This document shows positions 21,280-54,925 of a stretch of 64,000 bases of DNA, piece after piece. A program made the translations under genes and the position numbers. The stretch lies in assembly GCA_047456305.1 (NCBI GenBank), contig CP179888.1, forward strand, positions 445,307 through 509,306, in the 5' to 3' direction. Numbering within the stretch: position 1 is the stretch's first letter; the number at the start of each line of letters is the position of its first letter. The notes beneath the pieces are model-generated. The model made no database searches. It saw only the letters and a program-made list of their open reading frames with translations, and was not told the origin of the DNA. The DNA is from Candidatus Nealsonbacteria bacterium. GTDB taxonomy: Bacteria; Patescibacteriota; Minisyncoccia; Minisyncoccales; CAZKCU01.

Positions 21280-21451
21280 TTCGCTCGGCAGGACATTCGG
21301 GGATAAACCGCTCGGCAACGAAGTTTTCAAAGTACCGACCCTCAAAATCCCAGCGAGATTTTGGGGTCTGCGTTCTCGGCTCGTCGTCCGCCTTCGGCGG
21401 AACCATGCCGACGAGCCTCCGAAAGCTACTTTGAAACTTGTTACCTCGCTT
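21280..21451 (+). repeat. family A structured repeat, copy 1
   Basis: CGCTCGGCA boxes, outer stem AAGTTTTCAAAGTA/TACTTTGAAACTT, hairpin with CCCAGCGA loop, nested hairpin then ACCATGCC, ends TTACCTCGCT. Confidence 0.75.
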
Positions 21452-21492
21452 ATTATTCGTATATTCGTACTTATTCGTAATTCGTAGGGTTT

Positions 21493-24908: not shown

Positions 24909-24934
24909 TTCACCTTTGCTTTAAAATTTTCATT

Positions 24935-27109
24935 ATGCCTCGTTTATATCCAATTGAAAAGGTCAAAGATATAGGAATTATTGCTCATATTGATGCCGGA
25001 AAAACAACCGTGACAGAACGGGTGCTTTTTTATACCGGAATTTCCCATAAAATTGGAGAAGTTCACGATGGCCAAGCTATTATGGATTGGATGGAGCAAG
25101 AAAGAGAAAGAGGGATTACTATTACCGCTGCTGCCACCACCTGTTTTTGGACTCCACAAGATTTGGACGCCACCCTCCCGCCACCCCGAAAAAAAGATTA
25201 CAACCCACCCACCGCGTCCTCCCATTCGCCTGTCGGCGAACGGGTCCCTAATGAATATAGAATAAATATCATTGATACTCCAGGCCATATTGATTTTACT
25301 GCCGAAGTTCAAAGGTCTCTAAGGGTCTTAGATGGAGCAGTTGTGGTTTTTGATGGGGTGGCGGGAGTAGAGCCTCAGTCAGAAACTGTTTGGCGTCAGG
25401 CTGATACCTTTAAAATTCCCAGAATCTGCTTTATAAACAAAATGGACAGAATAGGAGCCTCTTTTGAAAAAAGTTTAGAATCTATTTTGGAAAAATTATC
25501 TCCGAATGCTCTAGCCCTTCAGCTACCAATTGGCGAAGAAGATAAATTTGAAGGAGTGATTGATCTTTTAAATCTGAAAGCTCTAAAATTTGAAGGTGAT
25601 TTCGGTCAAATAGTAAAAGAAGAAGATATTCCCGCTAATTTATTGGAAAAGGCAAAGGAATGGCGGGCAAAATTAGTTGAGAAAATTGTTGCTGAAGATG
25701 AAAGACTCTTGGAGAAATTTTTAGCTAAAAAAGAAGTTTCTATTGATGAGCTAAGAAAAGTTTTAAGAAAAGCTGTTTTAGACTACAAACTCGTTCCAGT
25801 TTTTTGCGGAGCAGCTCTCAGAAATATAGGAATCCAACCCCTCTTAGATGGAATTTGTTATTATCTTCCCAGTCCTTTAAATCTTCCACCGGTTAAGGGA
25901 ATTGATCCTAAAGATGGAAAAGAAATTGAAAGAAAACCGGAGGATTCAGAAAAATTTTCTGCCTTGGTCTTTAAAGTTGCGGATGACCCTTATGTTGGAA
26001 CCCTAACCTATTTTCGAGTTTATTCTGGTTTCTTAACAAGAGGCTCTTATTTATTAAACTCAACAACAGGAGAGAAAGAAAGGATTGGCCGGATTTTAAG
26101 AATGCATGCTTCGGAAAGAGAAGAGGTAAAAGAAATTTTCACCGGGGATATTGCTGCCACTATAGGGCTGAAAAAAACGTCCACCGGACATACTCTCTGT
26201 GAGATTAATAATCCAATTGTTCTTGAAAAAATTAGTTTTCCTGAACCGGTTATCTCTATACGCATTGAGCCAAAAACCCGGGCTGACCAGGAAAAGATGA
26301 GTTTGGCTCTAAGAAGATTGTCAGAAGAAGACCCCACTTTTAAAACCAAAAGTGATTTAGAAACTGGAGAGACGATTATTTCTGGAATGGGAGAATTGCA
26401 CCTTGAGATTATTGTTGATCGTATGAAAAGAGAATTTAAAGTGGAAGGCCTGGTGGGAAAACCTCAGGTAGCTTATAAGGAGACTATCAAACAGACTGCA
26501 GAGGCTGAAGGAAAATATATTAGACAATCGGGAGGACGAGGTCAATATGGTCATGTTTGGCTAAAGGTTTTACCAAAAAATAGGGGAGAGGGATTCGAAT
26601 TTATTGATGAAATCAAAGGCGGAATTATTCCCAAAGAATTTATTCCGGCAGTAGGAAAGGGAGTAAAGGAAGCTATAGAGAAAGGAATTCTGGCTGGATA
26701 TCCGATGGTTGATATGGAAGTTAGGCTGTATGATGGTTCTTTCCATGATGTAGATTCTTCAGAGGTCGCTTTTAAAATTGCAGGTTCTATAGCTCTTCAA
26801 GAAGCTTCCAAGAGAGCAAAACCAGTGATCCTCGAGCCAATTATGCGGCTTGAGGTTATTGTTCCTGAGGAATTTTTTGGTGATACTATCGGAGATTTAT
26901 CAGCCAGAAGGGGAAAAATTGAAGAGACTAAAGATAGATTAAATCTAAAAGTTATTGATGTTATTGTTCCTTTAGCTGAAATGTTTGGTTATGCCACTGC
27001 CCTACGTTCCTTGACTGAAGGCAGAGGAACCTTTACAATGGAATTTAATTACTACGAGGAAGTACCGGCAAATATTGCTCAGGAAATTATCGAAGGGCGA
27101 AGAAGATAA
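24935..27109 (+). CDS. fusA: elongation factor G, with a ~30-aa GC-rich insertion in the G domain
   Basis: [26 protein letters not shown]. Start taken at the ATG at 24935. Confidence 0.95.
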
Positions 27110-27190
27110 ATCTTCTTCTTGACCCTTCGCTAACGCTCGGGTGGCCGAAGAAGATAAATCTTCTTTTTTTCCCTTCGCTATCGCTCGGGA
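27091..27190 (+). repeat. two tandem small hairpin-box elements overlapping the fusA stop
   Basis: CGAAGGG-c-GAAGAAGA-taaa-TCTTCTTC-ttga-CCCTTCGCTAACGCTCGGG, then GAAGAAGAtaaaTCTTCTT...CCCTTCGCTATCGCTCGGGAG. The fusA TAA lies in the first hairpin loop. Confidence 0.8.
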
Positions 27191-27228
27191 GAAAGAGGAG
27201 ATGATTTTTATCCACAATTAGAGAACCA

Positions 27229-29070: not shown

Positions 29071-29694
29071 ATGGCAAAGTTTATTTTAGGATTAAAATTA
29101 GGAATGAGTCAAATCTTTGATGAGAAAGGAAATGTTATTCCGGTAACAGTTATTGAAGCAGGTCCCTGTTATGTTACCCAAATAAAGACAAAGGAAAAAG
29201 ATGGATATTCAGCTGTTCAGATTGGTTTTGGTGAAGCAAAAAAAATAACCAAAGCTTTGGCTGGCCATCTTAAAGGAGCAAAAGTTGGAAAATTGATGTT
29301 TTTGAGAGAATTTCGAAACGAAACACCTAAAATTGATGATAAAGAGCTAAAAATAAAGGATAAGATTGATGTTTCAATTTTTAAAGAAGGGGATAAAGTT
29401 AAAATTTCTGGAATCTCAAAAGGCAAAGGTTTTCAGGGAGCAGTTAAAAGATGGGGATTTTCAGGAATGGGGGCTAGCCATGGAGTAAAGCATGAGCACC
29501 GAACCTTGGGTTCGGTCGGAAGCAGCTTTCCGGAAAGAGTAATCAAGGGCAAGAAGATGCCCGGTCGGATGGGAAACGAAAGAGTAACGGTCAAAAATTT
29601 AAAAGTAGTTAAAATTGATAAAGAAAATAATTTATTAGCAGTAAAAGGAGCTGTGCCGGGTAGAAAGGGTATATTATTAGAAATTAGAGGATAA
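29071..29694 (+). CDS. rplC: 50S ribosomal protein L3
   Basis: G.KLGMSQIFDE.G...PVTVIE; FQG..KRWGF.G. Confidence 0.95.
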   Translation: MAKFILGLKLGMSQIFDEKGNVIPVTVIEAGPCYVTQIKTKEKDGYSAVQIGFGEAKKITKALAGHLKGAKVGKLMFLREFRNETPKIDDKELKIKDKIDVSIFKEGDKVKISGISKGKGFQGAVKRWGFSGMGASHGVKHEHRTLGSVGSSFPERVIKGKKMPGRMGNERVTVKNLKVVKIDKENNLLAVKGAVPGRKGILLEIRG

Positions 29695-29838
29695 TCGCTC
29701 GGCAAGCTGGTTTCAGGGTCGTTCGCTCGCCCCAGCGAGGCTCGCTCACTCAGGTAAAGACCTTCGCTCTTCGAGCTAAAGCTCGAAACCATGCCCGCTC
29801 AGGCCTTTAACTGTCCCTGAAACCACTGCCTCGCTTAA
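29695..29838 (+). repeat. family A structured repeat, copy 2 (between rplC and rplD)
   Basis: CGCTCGGCAA..., outer stem TGGTTTCAGGG/CCCTGAAACCA, CCCAGCGA, hairpin TTCGAGC-taaa-GCTCGAA then ACCATGCC, ends CTGCCTCGCT. Confidence 0.7.
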
Positions 29839-34756: not shown

Positions 34757-34926
34757 CAGCTTTTGGAAGATAATTTTTGGTACACGCAAATTTTTCCAGC
34801 GAAAATTTGCTCCTACTCGCGAATTGCTCGCCGCGAAGCGGCGAGACCAAGCCAATTCGCTGCGGACTCCACCCACCCGCCACCCTCCTAAGAGGCACCT
34901 GTCCCAAAAATTACTTCCCTCGCTTA
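34757..34926 (+). repeat. family A structured repeat, copy 3 (between rplN and rplX), carrying an extra CCACCC-rich ~33-nt insert
   Basis: about 90 percent identical by eye to copy 5, except for CTCCACCCACCCGCCACCCTCCTAAGAGGCACC at 34868-34900. Confidence 0.8.
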
Positions 34927-34987
34927 GAGTTTTTTTATTCGTATATTCTTATTAATTCTTAATTTACAAAGAGATGAAAATAAAAAT

Positions 34988-37151: not shown

Positions 37152-37172
37152 CAGCTTAGCTTATTTTTACTT

Positions 37173-37215
37173 ACCCGAGCGTAGCGAAGGGTGAAGAAGA
37201 GGATTTATCCTCTTT
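37173..37215 (+). repeat. small hairpin-box element (between rplF and rplR)
   Basis: ACCCGAGCGTAGCGAAGGGTGAAGAAGAGGATttatCCTCTT. Confidence 0.75.
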
Positions 37216-39852: not shown

Positions 39853-39910
39853 CCCTACGAATTGCCCACTGTTTACAGACAGCGAGTTATTACGAATATA
39901 CGAATAAAAA
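39853..39910 (-). repeat. TTATTCGTATATTCGTA...ATTCGTAGGG repeat, inverted copy
   Basis: the reverse complement shares TTATTCGTATATTCGTA and AATTCGTAGGG with 21452-21490; 34937-34950 shares a 14-mer. Confidence 0.5.
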
Positions 39911-43364: not shown

Positions 43365-43558
43365 ATTGCTCGGCAATGAAGTGTTAAAGTACCGATAGTT
43401 CAAATCCCAGCGCGAAGAGGATAAATTCTCTTCTTCCCCCTTCGCTATCGCTCGGGAGCGAGATTTGACTATCTACATTCTCGTCCCGTCGCTCCGACTT
43501 CGTCGGAGACCGTGCCGACGGGACTGCGAAAGTTACTTTAAAACTTATTGCCTCGCTT
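43365..43558 (+). repeat. family A structured repeat, copy 4, with a small hairpin-box element nested in its first loop
   Basis: TTGCTCGGCAA...TTGCCTCGCT. CCCAGCG[43413-43460 insert]CGAGATTTG; GTCCCGTCG/CGACGGGAC around CTCCGAC-ttcg-GTCGGAG then ACCGTGCC. Confidence 0.8.
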
Positions 43559-44354: not shown

Positions 44355-44387
44355 TTTTCTTTTTTATTTTTGTTATTCTAATAAAGA

Positions 44388-44554
44388 ACCCACATCGGAA
44401 GGGGGTCGGGGAAACCCTTCGGTTTCCCCGTGTAGGAAAATATTAAAAACCGAGGGTTTTTAAAGAGCGAGCCCGAAGCGAGGCTGAGCTTGTCGAAGCC
44501 GAGCGCCAGCCGTAAGGCTGGATGAGGGCGAGCGACTAACTTAGTAATACCACT
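44388..44554 (+). repeat. family B structured element, copy 1, ending exactly at the ATG of 44555
   Basis: shares ACCCAyATCGGAAGGGGGTCGGGGAAACCyTTCGGTTTCCCCGTGTAGGAAAATA, GAGGGTTTyTTAA(A)GAGCGAGCCCGAAG and GAGGGCGAGCGACTAACTTAGTAAyACCACT-ATG with 50574-50760. Confidence 0.8.
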
Positions 44555-46879: not shown

Positions 46880-46924
46880 GAATTCTTCTTACCCCTTCGC
46901 TGGCGCTCGGGAATAAGAAGAATT
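46880..46924 (+). repeat. small element with arms flanking the box (after alaS)
   Basis: GAATTCTTCTTA-CCCCTTCGCTGGCGCTCGGG-AATAAGAAGAATT. Confidence 0.75.
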
Positions 46925-46958
46925 AGGGCAATTTTGCAATAATTGCTATAATCAAACA

Positions 46959-49868: not shown

Positions 49869-49968
49869 TCAAAGAAGATAAATCTTCTTCTTCACTCTTC
49901 GTTGCGGCTCGGGTAGTCAAAGAAGATAAATCTTCTTTTCCATCTTCGCTTTAATAAATTAAAGCTCA
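49866..49968 (+). repeat. two tandem small hairpin-box units starting at the infA stop codon
   Basis: TAGTCAAAGAAGAtaaaTCTTCTTCTTCACTCTTCGTTGCGGCTCGGG, then TAGTCAAAGAAGAtaaaTCTTCTTTTCCATCTTCGCT-TTAAtaaaTTAA-AGCTCA. Confidence 0.8.
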
Positions 49969-50552: not shown

Positions 50553-50573
50553 AGCTTCCTACTAAAACGACCG

Positions 50574-50760
50574 ACCCATATCGGAAGGGGGTCGGGGAAA
50601 CCTTTCGGTTTCCCCGTGTAGGAAAATAAGAGTGAGTTGCTAAAAGCAACGAACGACGTAAGAAAACGAGGGTTTCTTAAGAGCGAGCCCGAAGGTCGAC
50701 GAAGGCGACCGCTGGAGCAAAGCTCCAGAGAGGGCGAGCGACTAACTTAGTAACACCACT
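50574..50760 (+). repeat. family B structured element, copy 2, ending exactly at the rpsK ATG
   Basis: see 44388-44554. Variable helices differ but stay paired: GTCG-acgaagg-CGAC and CTGGAGC-aaa-GCTCCAG, versus GGCT...AGCC and CCAGCC-gtaa-GGCTGG. Confidence 0.8.
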
Positions 50761-54707: not shown

Positions 54708-54710
54708 AGT

Positions 54711-54873
54711 GCTCAGGAAGTTAATTTTTGGTACACGCGAATTTTTCCAGCGAAAATTCGCTGCTACTCGCGAATTGCTCCGACTTCGTGGGAGACCAAG
54801 CCAATTCGCTGCGGATTGTCCCAAAAATTACTTCCCTCGCTCCGAAATTTACTCTGAAACTTGTTACCTCGCT
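54711..54873 (+). repeat. family A structured repeat, copy 5, plus a truncated 3' remnant of another copy
   Basis: AATTTTTGGTACA/TGTCCCAAAAATT, GCGAATTTT-tccagcg-AAAATTCGC, GCGAATTG..ACCAAGCCAATTCGC. The following CCGAAATTTACTCTGAAACTTGTTACCTCGCT matches the 3' end of copy 1. Confidence 0.8.
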
Positions 54874-54925
54874 TACCCGAGCCGCAGGCGAAGGGTGAAG
54901 AAAAGGACGAAGTCCTCTTTGCCTA
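54874..54925 (+). repeat. small hairpin-box element
   Basis: ACCCGAGCCGCAGGCGAAGGGTGAAGAAAAGGACgaaGTCCTCTTTGCC. Confidence 0.75.

Follow-up and report, generated by a model that had tools for sequence, protein, structure and literature searches.

What kind of element lies between the genes for ribosomal proteins L14 and L24 in this Candidatus Nealsonbacteria genome, and how can it recur, always pointing the same way as the genes, at other junctions of the same region? The window analysed here is a stretch of 64,000 nucleotides (64 kb), and a previous reading of it, made from the sequence only, described five intergenic copies of a structured repeat, Family A, which was taken to be either a structured RNA module within polycistronic mRNAs or a MITE (a transposable element of miniature size with inverted repeats) that needs its fold. 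Our analysis revealed that every helix of a closed three-way junction has been kept through compensatory substitutions, and that Family A is gained, replaced and lost quickly, with several subfamilies in one genome. The reading that we favour, giving it an even chance of being right, makes Family A a non-autonomous mobile element that is transcribed together with the operon it sits in and is under selection for folding as a closed domain.

Family A in the window and in other genomes

Two covariance models were used. The first, R1, for which copy 1 and an insert-free version of copy 4 were used, holds 52 base pairs and one branch point, and the second, R2, is a family-wide model in which 60 relatives were used. 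A search of the whole window on both strands with R1, filters off, gave five real matches, all on the + strand. The same five were recovered by R2 with 157, 105.5, 105.5, 85 and 32 bits, the next matches being reverse-strand echoes or having E>0.4. The five places and the common strand proposed by the sequence-only reading were therefore borne out by both models, as was co-orientation with the operons, genes and elements of the window pointing one way. Pfam agrees with the placement of copies between L3 and L4 (rplC-rplD) and between L14 and L24 (rplN-rplX). The region given as copy 1 (21280-21451) does contain the element but is composite, consisting of a 27-nt 5' remnant (21280-21306) and a full copy (21307-21451). 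The same remnant-then-copy layout was seen between GalT and TIM in L245 (loci outside the window are designated L with a number), and a full copy with a trailing 3' remnant, as at copy 5, recurs at the S7/EF-G junction of L245 and in L046.

Three subfamilies are present in the window, type I (copies 1 and 4), type II (copy 2) and type III (copies 3 and 5). Identity is 77% within type I and 84% within type III (with the extra segment of copy 3 removed), and about 55% between types. Copies measure 132-194 nt, typically about 145 nt, and have a GC content of 49-58% in a window of 35.6%.

The first pattern applied to the genome collection (CCAGCGA..ACCRWGCC..CCTCGCT) was too loose: of the 120 loci obtained, 117 were chance matches in high-GC genomes and three were true (L011, L044 and L046, all from Patescibacteria genome bins). 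A tighter pattern, which demanded CTCGGYAA, CCAGCGAG and ACCRTGCC, returned 120 loci from metagenome contigs, 75 of them with the element, and about 60 distinct copies outside the window, at unrelated junctions, became available. Three pattern matches in viral contigs were all due to chance, and phage and plasmid records contained no Family A match, those in Ensifer traA being chance matches.

At Rfam 15 gathering thresholds, the only match in the whole window was a tRNA-Pro, and copies 1, 2 and 3 gave nothing but chance matches far below threshold at E up to 5-10. No Rfam ribozyme family (hammerhead, twister, twister-sister, pistol, hatchet, HDV-like) matches Family A, nor does any HEARO, IS605-associated RNA or ribosomal-protein leader family. 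Comparison with Rfam and with known repeats thus matched Family A to no known RNA family or repeat, and no description of such an element in bacteria of the candidate phyla radiation (CPR) was found in the full-text literature searched. As far as we found, Family A is a previously undescribed element family of Patescibacteria (CPR). The nearest sequences to the SecY protein of the window come from bins that bear the names Candidatus Pacebacteria (94%) and Nealsonbacteria (82%); therefore, the host range is Patescibacteria generally, beyond the bins labelled Saccharibacteria. For the L14 protein of the window, no identical sequence was found on record.

A three-way junction with compensatory changes

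Family A contains the stems and motifs that had been listed for it, arranged as five helices in a three-way junction (P1; P2; P3-P4-P5) and not as three helices. P1 is a long terminal stem, P2 a hairpin capped by the 7-nt loop CCAGCGA, and P3 a short helix that leads to P4, with an 8-nt 3' bulge (ACCRWGCC) and the tip hairpin P5, whose loop is UUCG in 28 of 64 copies, UACG also being seen. The boxes CGCTCGGCA(A) and YCTCGCT, first described as free flanks of the structure, pair with each other, as GC/GC and GGCAA/UUGCC on either side of a UC/UC internal loop, and so make up the foot of the outer stem. In this way the ends of the element are paired, GCTCGGCAAC with GTTGCCTCGC across the UC/UC mismatch, and over up to about 20 bp within subfamilies. 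In the stems quoted previously the two sides are indeed complementary, and the same stems appear in minimum-free-energy folds, whose z-scores against dinucleotide shuffles range from -3.9 to -5.0.

The main covariation set was a model-fitted alignment of 65 distinct sequences and 52 pairs. Standard pairs occupied 90.3% of its cells (64.5% when shuffled, 30-53% with slid partners), changes on both sides were found in 47 of the 52 pairs, and the covariation score was 0.577 against 0.165 in shuffles, the observed value being reached by 0 of 500 shuffles. Because a model-fitted alignment leans towards its own model, the count was repeated on a plain sequence-only MAFFT alignment of 21 type-I copies with the fold of copy 1. 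In this control 95.7% of cells were paired (82.9% in shuffles, at most 50% in slid controls), and double changes occurred in 35 of 52 pairs against 16.6 expected, including 10 of 12 pairs in P2 and all nine in P4. The 21 copies contain at least 8 distinct fully paired variants of P2 and at least 12 of P4. Covariation, which was expected to vanish in a larger alignment if the structural claim were wrong, did not vanish, and selection on structure is strongly supported by both counts.

The single-stranded motifs are also conserved between subfamilies whose stems have next to no sequence in common. Type II has a long P3, and an internal loop takes the place of P4, which is missing throughout the subfamily. 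The degeneracy of P2 (hairpin 1) in copy 2 was seen again in that copy but does not extend to other type II members, whose 7-bp P2 covaries (GCUCGCC/GGCGAGC, GUCCCAC/GUGGGAC, AUCCCGC/GCGGGAU, GCUAUCC/GGAUAGC).

Two kinds of further contact were considered and not retained. AGCGAG of the P2 loop and CUCGCU of the 3' box are complementary and could form a pseudoknot, but both partners are nearly invariant, and where the 3' box varies (L046, L133, L141, L130) the loop does not follow. Pairing of the loop with the bulge, or of the 5' box with UGCC of the bulge, is not kept in type III and was dropped.

Gain, replacement and loss between relatives

In L245, a syntenic 20-kb stretch whose secY DNA is 96.1% identical to that of the window, occupancy differs from the window at four junctions. 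The S7/EF-G junction has only a 26-nt spacer in the window and a type-III copy with a 3' remnant in L245, and S8/L6 has 5 nt in the window and a 45-nt mini remnant in L245. Conversely, L3/L4 carries a type-II copy in the window and a possible short footprint (CGCTCACTTACC) in L245, and L14/L24 carries a type-III copy in the window and 27 nt with no element in L245. Additionally, the type-I copy between GalT and TIM in the window is matched in L245 by a different type-I variant with a 30-nt type-III 5' remnant before it. The L14/L24 junction is also without an element in L244, where the L24 protein is 95% identical, and in L171, another organism, L3/L4 is occupied by type I where the window has type II. 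Because occupancy differs between close relatives, Family A is dispensable at any single site.

Exchange between copies was detected as well. Copy 4 and its orthologue in L179 are identical over the last 115 nt and differ at seven positions in the first 30 nt; since these 30 nt in L179 carry copy-1 variant sequence, the L179 copy is a chimera. In-situ purifying selection on copy 4 and L179 (0 differences in 115 nt against 8.7% third-codon-position divergence) was considered and not adopted, because with the 5' 30 nt of L179 coming from another variant the identity is equally explained by recent recombination. Solo 5' boxes stand directly after stop codons in L135, L210 and L225, and every solo box in 0.59 Mb of loci was a remnant that did not flank any gene. 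From this handful of loci we infer that new copies arrive on the stop-codon side of existing ones and that the tandems collapse, recombination giving chimeras and deletion giving remnants.

Identical flanking 3-mers, as expected of a target-site duplication, were found in 7 of 54 cases against 4.4 expected (p = 0.12), and no transposase, reverse transcriptase or autonomous copy was seen in about 0.6 Mb of loci, in a search that was not systematic. Of the two alternatives first proposed, mobility is supported by the occupancy differences, remnants and chimeras; a mobile MITE and an RNA module are not mutually exclusive, and the two were not separated.

A side observation concerns the 26-nt S7/EF-G spacer of the window (24909-24934; TTCACCTTTGCTTTAAAATTTTCATT), which resembles a decayed Family A 3' box and trailer (CCTCGCTTAAAGATTTTTATT), and therefore some short spacers of this genome may be relics of lost copies.

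Position and orientation

Context was counted on flank-distinct copies. Of 58 upstream genes, 56 are on the strand of the element, as are 46 of 50 downstream genes, and orientation amounts to about 57 of 58, because one of the two upstream exceptions is the reverse-strand echo of a true match. The only clearly antisense copy, L208:527-674, has as neighbours a 559-residue gene and a gene that we take, from its N-terminal sequence, to be trpS; 5 nt separate its 3' box from the stop codon, and 3 nt its 5' box from the start codon of the putative trpS. This copy shows that the opposite orientation can arise but is rare. The strict orientation is not imposed by the region, because another repeat, Family X, occurs both ways in the same genome.

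Counted from the position at which the covariance model begins, the stop codon of the upstream gene ends at -2 to +5 nt in 45 of 61 loci. At nine further loci the reading frame enters the element for 17-23 nt and stops in the 5' strand of P1, the stop in the -17 cases being the UGA of the GCUGA variant of type II. At the remaining seven the stop is 10-27 nt away, and for at least copy 1 the gap is filled by the 5' remnant. The consensus of the 5' flank is T-A-R-T-C immediately followed by GCTCGGCAA, with left-flank positions 50-75% conserved and 1-5 nt between stop codon and box. On the 3' side, CCTCGCT is immediately followed by Y-A-A-A-G, then by an AU-rich part and then by the next ATG; TA(A/G) stands after the 3' box in about 50% of copies, and a conserved UARAG with an AU-rich trailer lies ahead of the next ATG.

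The junctions occupied include S7/EF-G in five organisms, S8/L6 in three and L3/L4 in three, with L14/L24 (window copy 3) as another core junction. Enolase is the upstream gene in three, dnaK/dnaJ and rpoB/rpoC are occupied too, and single neighbours are genes for ATP synthase, RRF, FtsZ, RNase III and PilB. As to the surroundings in the window, + strand genes between 17.8 and 56.3 kb are AU-rich before the start codon (...aaaattATG, ...ccactATG) with no recognisable Shine-Dalgarno sequence, and many of their junctions are 1-10 nt long or overlapping.

Reading frames in and around the element were also noted. Upstream genes without a stop of their own that read 17-23 nt into the element are those of L212/L234 (rpoB), L210, L217/L223 and L242, and also L133/L138/L192; the -17 cases end at the UGA of the type-II variant GCUGAUUU, by which about five residues (..RSAS) are gained, for example by RpoB. 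Gene callers begin downstream genes at a TTG within the 3' box, for example at 43548 of the window. In 44 of 60 copies (in the window at 21405-21434, 29791-29820 and 43512-43541), a 9-codon frame runs from the AUG/GUG of the bulge (ACC-RUG-CC) to a conserved UGA/UAA on the 3' strand of P1, its stop lying in the sole P1 block common to types I and II (GUUUCA/UGAAAC); in type-III-like copies the bulge frame ends instead at a UAR after the 3' box. This frame was not adopted as coding: the peptides are unrelated between types (..LRKLL and ..AFNSP), copies 3 and 5 have no AUG, and RUG was imposed by the search pattern.

Features of the window and neighbouring repeats

The features of Family A in the window are collected in Table 1.

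Table 1. Coordinates of Family A copies, their helices and remnants in the 64-kb window.
Feature	Position	Strand	Description
5' remnant of older or other copy	21280..21306	+	27 nt: 5' box TTCGCTCGGCAGG and about 14 nt; directly after TAA of upstream MBL-fold gene
Copy 1, full type I	21307..21451	+	175 bits (R1), 157 bits (R2); match starts at 21307; fold z = -4.97
Copy 1 P1	21310-21334 with 21426-21449	+	Copy 1 fold
Copy 1 P2	21337-21367	+	CCAGCGA loop at 21350-21356
Copy 1 P4/P5	21378-21417	+	UUCG loop; bulge ACCATGCC at 21402-21409
Copy 2, type II, between L3 and L4	29694..29838	+	105.5 bits (R2); TAA of L3 ends at 29694
Copy 3 (focal), type III, between L14 and L24	34757..34926	+	32 bits (R2), full length; directly after TAG of L14
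Copy 3 P1 5' strand	34758..34784	+	Pairs with 34900-34924, minimum-free-energy fold
Copy 3 5' box	34759-34769		Degenerate, GCTTTTGGAAG
Copy 3 P2 hairpin	34786..34810	+	GCAAATTTTT / AAAATTTGC, CCAGCG(A) loop
Copy 3 P4-P5	34819..34860	+	P4 GCGAATTG/CAATTCGC around P5 CTCGCCGC-GAA-GCGGCGAG; bulge ACCAAGCC at 34846-34853
Copy 3 extra C-rich segment	34867..34897	+	About 31 nt; not in copy 5 or family consensus
Copy 3 P1 3' strand including 3' box	34900..34924	+	Minimum-free-energy fold
Copy 3 3' box	34917-34924		CCCTCGCT
Copy 4, type I, between GalT/HIT-like gene and TIM	43365..43558	+	156 bits (R1); orthologous to L179 and L245 copy
Family X insertion in copy 4 P2 loop	43413..43461	+	49 nt; orthologue L179 without insertion
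Copy 5, type III	54708..54842	+	Starts at TAA of upstream gene
3' remnant of type-I element behind copy 5	54843..54876	+	34 nt; CCGAAATTTACTCTGAAACTTGTTACCTCGCTTA; matches copy 1 3' end

Three other repeats were detected nearby. The first is a second module, TTCGTAnnTTCGTA, often extended to TATTCGTATATTCGTA-n3-5-ATTCGTAATTCGTAGGGTT-ATG, which reaches the start codons of unrelated genes in different organisms. It is found in the window at 21453-21489 and 34935-34951 (+) and at 39853-39910 (-), and in loci such as L150, L011, L225, L144 and L178. Among 41 occurrences in 0.56 Mb, 28 lie at most 40 nt downstream of a same-strand Family A copy with a spacing of 5-15 nt; of the other 13, which are in either orientation, one is close to a copy but differently arranged, and the remaining 12 are elsewhere. 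The module may serve as a promoter or leader cassette, or be a further mobile unit. An outward promoter from the 3' box of Family A (TTGTTA, 16 nt, TATATT at copy 1) was rejected: the distance to the TTCGTA module differs between copies (5 to 15 nt), so that no fixed -35/-10 pair is formed.

The second repeat is Family X, of 45-50 nt, with a hairpin GAAGAAGATAAATCTTCTTC plus CCCTTCGCTAWCGCTCGGG, present in both orientations. It occurs on the + strand at 27109-27192 (two in tandem), 46880-46925 and about 49870-49965 (two), besides the insertion in copy 4, on the - strand at 37170-37213 and 54873-54921, and also in L215/L232. The motif TCGCTCGG is common to Family X and the 5' box of Family A. 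The third, Family C, is a structured leader of about 170-190 nt, CCCAYATCGGARGGGGTCGGGRAAACC...GAGGGTTTTTAARGAGCG...ACTTAGTAAYACCACT-ATG, which ends exactly at the next start codon. It is found in the window at 44385-44554 and 50570-50760 (+), in L135:4440-4640, and in L210 and L225, and its conservation extends across organisms; in other genomes a solo Family A 5' box stands before it. Family C has no match in Rfam and may be a cis-regulatory RNA.

Proposed mechanism and the strand that folds

If Family A is a non-autonomous mobile element that travels in the transcript of its host operon, its position could be understood as follows. The element would be co-transcribed with the operon, P1 would clamp its two ends so that about 130 nt are looped out, and the stop codon would stay near the AU-rich start region of the next gene, which has no Shine-Dalgarno sequence. 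A terminating ribosome covers about 10 nt past the stop codon and would therefore have to melt the basal box-box pairing. When it terminates 2-3 nt before P1, the box-box pairing would open and the 3' strand and trailer upstream of the next AUG would be freed, by which downstream initiation would stay coupled to upstream translation. Copies that fold would thus be tolerated in essential operons and insertions at other positions or in the opposite orientation would be purged, so that position and orientation would both be accounted for. The end boxes, the CCAGCGA loop and the ACCRUGCC bulge might, purely as conjecture, be recognition sites for a copying machinery.

Several points weigh against this reading. 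Co-transcription and any effect on translation are what we infer from the DNA. A simple hairpin is enough for looping out, and a three-way junction with a conserved loop and bulge is left unexplained by it. In the large set, the search pattern itself accounts for part of the near-invariance of the loop, bulge and box motifs; copies outside the pattern (copies 3 and 5, two in L245, L239:4178 and L167:8469) keep recognisable but less perfect motifs, and covariation is unaffected, because the stems fell in the unconstrained gaps of the pattern. The stems show no excess of G-U over A-C among non-Watson-Crick cells (16 and 29 in type I; 5 and 39 in P1 of all types), some of the A-C cells being due to a G-to-A variant by which the 5' strand of P1 gains a UGA stop, and folds of the minus strand are no less stable than those of the plus strand. 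There is therefore no clean signature of a selected + strand RNA. Besides, genes, GC skew and elements of the window are all co-oriented, so that transcription and replication cannot be told apart as the source of orientation. Hints of RNA-level selection on the + strand are the near-exclusive co-orientation with genes and the UUCG/UACG loops, such tetraloops being special in RNA and not in DNA.

Alternative explanations

The least unlikely of the alternatives, though clearly less probable than the reading above, is a single-stranded-DNA transposon, in which the fold is needed by a strand-specific HUH-type enzyme (as in miniature derivatives of IS200/IS605 or in REP/RAYT) and folding of the RNA is incidental. 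Orientation would then reflect the direction of replication, with which the genes are co-oriented, and new copies would go in on the 3' side of a short target, for example TAR(T), which in a compact genome survives mainly at stop codons. The strand-specific orientation, the GC skew shared by genes and elements, the undetected target-site duplication and the semi-conserved T-A-R-T of the 5' flank all agree with it. However, a target that is cleaved through base pairing should be nearly invariant, while the left flank is 50-75% conserved and its spacing varies from 1 to 5 nt. The equal folding of the opposite strand and the missing G-U excess fit a fold needed for propagation and not in situ, and compensated differences between lineages together with random-looking decay within copies fit a few selected source copies. 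On the other side, the ends of Family A pair over about 20 bp in P1 and those of IS200/IS605 do not, UUCG tetraloops have no special stability in DNA, and no Y1 transposase was seen in any locus, though the search was not systematic. The antisense copy of L208 is uninformative here unless the direction of replication at that place is known.

It is also unlikely, to much the same degree, that Family A is a new functional RNA acting at the terminating ribosome or on the mRNA after stop codons, or that it spreads through an RNA intermediate targeted to translation termination. As a functional RNA it could be a self-cleaving or RNase-guiding 'operon punctuation', or a shunt-like termination-reinitiation device that works without Shine-Dalgarno sequences. 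If either were true, the stop-codon position would be a feature of the mechanism and not an effect of survivorship.

A shade less probable again is an intercistronic RNA device that benefits the host (a site for RNase III or another RNase, a self-cleaving ribozyme by the stop codon, or a reinitiation element), retained by the host where operons are highly expressed and multiplied through duplication. Precise placement at the stop codon, the use of S7/EF-G, S8/L6 and L3/L4 in several organisms, and a P1 of about 20 bp, sufficient in length for an RNase III substrate, would be expected of such a device, and the RNase III gene adjoining two copies points weakly the same way. Yet occupancy varies at 96% secY identity and element-free junctions evidently work, and the remnants and chimeras look like the turnover of a selfish element. 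The unpaired motifs are conserved across subfamilies with almost no common stem sequence, as a device would require, but this conservation is partly ascertainment by the search pattern; no ribozyme or cis-regulatory match was found in Rfam at E up to 10, and neither the pseudoknot nor the loop-bulge contact covaries.

An ordinary cut-and-paste MITE of a DDE transposase (with an IS630-like TA target, or an IS5-like TNA/YTAR) is improbable, although P1 could be read as its terminal inverted repeats and the stop-codon position as a TAA/TAG target regenerated by duplication. The 100-200 bp size and stable transcript fold are typical of bacterial MITEs (PMC2229807), the ends are imperfect inverted repeats (GCTCGGCAAC and GCGAGGCAAC, 8/10; longer within subfamilies), TAR precedes the 5' side and TA(A/G) follows the 3' box in about half of the copies. 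A TA duplication at copy 2 would rebuild the site exactly. Flanking trinucleotide identity is not above chance, though, the internal helices P2-P5 covary although binding of a transposase to double-stranded DNA does not require them, no related insertion sequence was found, and a 57:1 orientation bias is not a known property of DDE MITEs.

Significance

CPR (Patescibacteria) genomes, of about 1 Mb, are regarded as streamlined and poor in mobile DNA. The L3/L4, L14/L24, S7/EF-G, S8/L6 and rpoB/rpoC junctions are among the most packed and conserved in bacteria, and yet a 145-nt structured element lies in them, with turnover visible between genomes 4% apart in secY. Some of what makes the intergenic content of CPR ribosomal-protein operons unusual may be due to Family A and its remnants. 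Several gene calls extend into the element or begin within its 3' box, and at such places annotation can be put right. The family is a natural system for the tolerance of inserts in translationally coupled operons without Shine-Dalgarno sequences, and its stop-codon position, single orientation and conserved loops are handles on a new transposition mechanism or RNA function. The covariance model from the present work is directly usable for a census.

Comparison with known systems

In size and copy number, Family A fits the bacterial MITEs (PMC2229807, Table 1), being non-coding and present in five copies in 64 kb, and like their terminal inverted repeats its ends are complementary. ERIC/IRU (enterobacterial repetitive intergenic consensus), Correia/NEMIS, RUP and bcr1 are similar to it in having 100-200 bp, no coding capacity, many copies in transcribed intergenic regions, complementary ends and a stable fold. 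ERIC is co-transcribed, and it has been proposed that a ribosome-induced conformational change exposes an RNase E site in it, orientation being critical; what ERIC does to adjacent mRNAs depends both on its orientation and on its unfolding by ribosomes (PMC2229807). It is thus the closest experimental precedent for the unfolding by ribosomes proposed for Family A. ERIC, Correia, RUP and bcr1 form one long imperfect hairpin, whereas Family A is a five-helix three-way junction with a conserved loop and bulge. In bcr1, from the Bacillus cereus group, compensatory changes in the predicted RNA fold have reportedly been seen. MITEs of the ERIC type make TA or other target duplications, and none is demonstrable in Family A; they are found in both orientations, as ERIC and Correia elements are, in contrast to the 57:1 of Family A. 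We know of none of them that abuts stop codons within 0-5 nt, and the host of Family A, a CPR lineage of about 36% GC, is unlike theirs.

REP/BIME sequences of Escherichia coli are, like Family A, extragenic structured repeats in operons, often just after stop codons. They stabilise the upstream mRNA, and REPs within about 15 nt of a stop codon are said, in work of Liang, Rudd and Deutscher from 2015, to interfere with terminating ribosomes. REPs are palindromes of 20-40 nt with a GTAG head, mobilised by RAYT transposases and arranged as inverted pairs in REPIN, whereas Family A, which has neither sequence nor architecture in common with them, is an asymmetric three-way junction without a GTAG head. 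MIRU elements (mycobacterial interspersed repetitive units) resemble Family A in being intercistronic in polycistronic operons and oriented with the operon; Supply and co-workers reportedly described them in 1997 as tied to the stop and start codons of their neighbours. They are, however, direct repeats of 40-100 bp with short reading frames over the flanking stop and start codons, and are not structured by covariation.

The miniature derivatives of IS200/IS605 (PATEs), with their single-stranded-DNA 'peel and paste' transposition, share with Family A strand specificity and a position next to a short motif. They make no target duplication, as none is demonstrable in Family A, and depend on folded single strands, as Family A may. 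PATEs have an invariant left target of 4-5 nt, no terminal inverted repeats and two similar subterminal hairpins, in all of which Family A differs, and no TnpA/TnpB gene was seen in its loci. Integron attC sites have an RYYYAAC...GTTRRRY core and a bottom-strand hairpin with extrahelical bases, and follow cassette genes. The boxes of Family A do not keep an AAC/GTT core, since type I has CGGCAAC/GTTGCCT and type II has GGCAAG/CTTGCC, and the sites are fixed core operons and not cassettes. Nor does Family A resemble an intrinsic terminator, a GC-rich stem with a U tract right behind it: no + strand terminator was found at copies 1 and 3 in a terminator scan, the U-rich trailer is 5-6 nt away from P1, and the base of P1 is weak and mismatched.

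Two systems are alike without homology. The RNase III sites of phage T7 early genes are, like Family A, repeated intercistronic structured elements, and lie in a polycistronic RNA. In the leader of cauliflower mosaic virus (CaMV), a stop codon a few nt before a long closed structure lets ribosomes resume downstream by shunting; this is a phenomenon of eukaryotic scanning, and the likeness to Family A is in working only. What distinguishes Family A from all of these is the set of a five-helix three-way junction, conserved unpaired motifs, a 57:1 orientation, a position 0-5 nt after stop codons and a CPR host.

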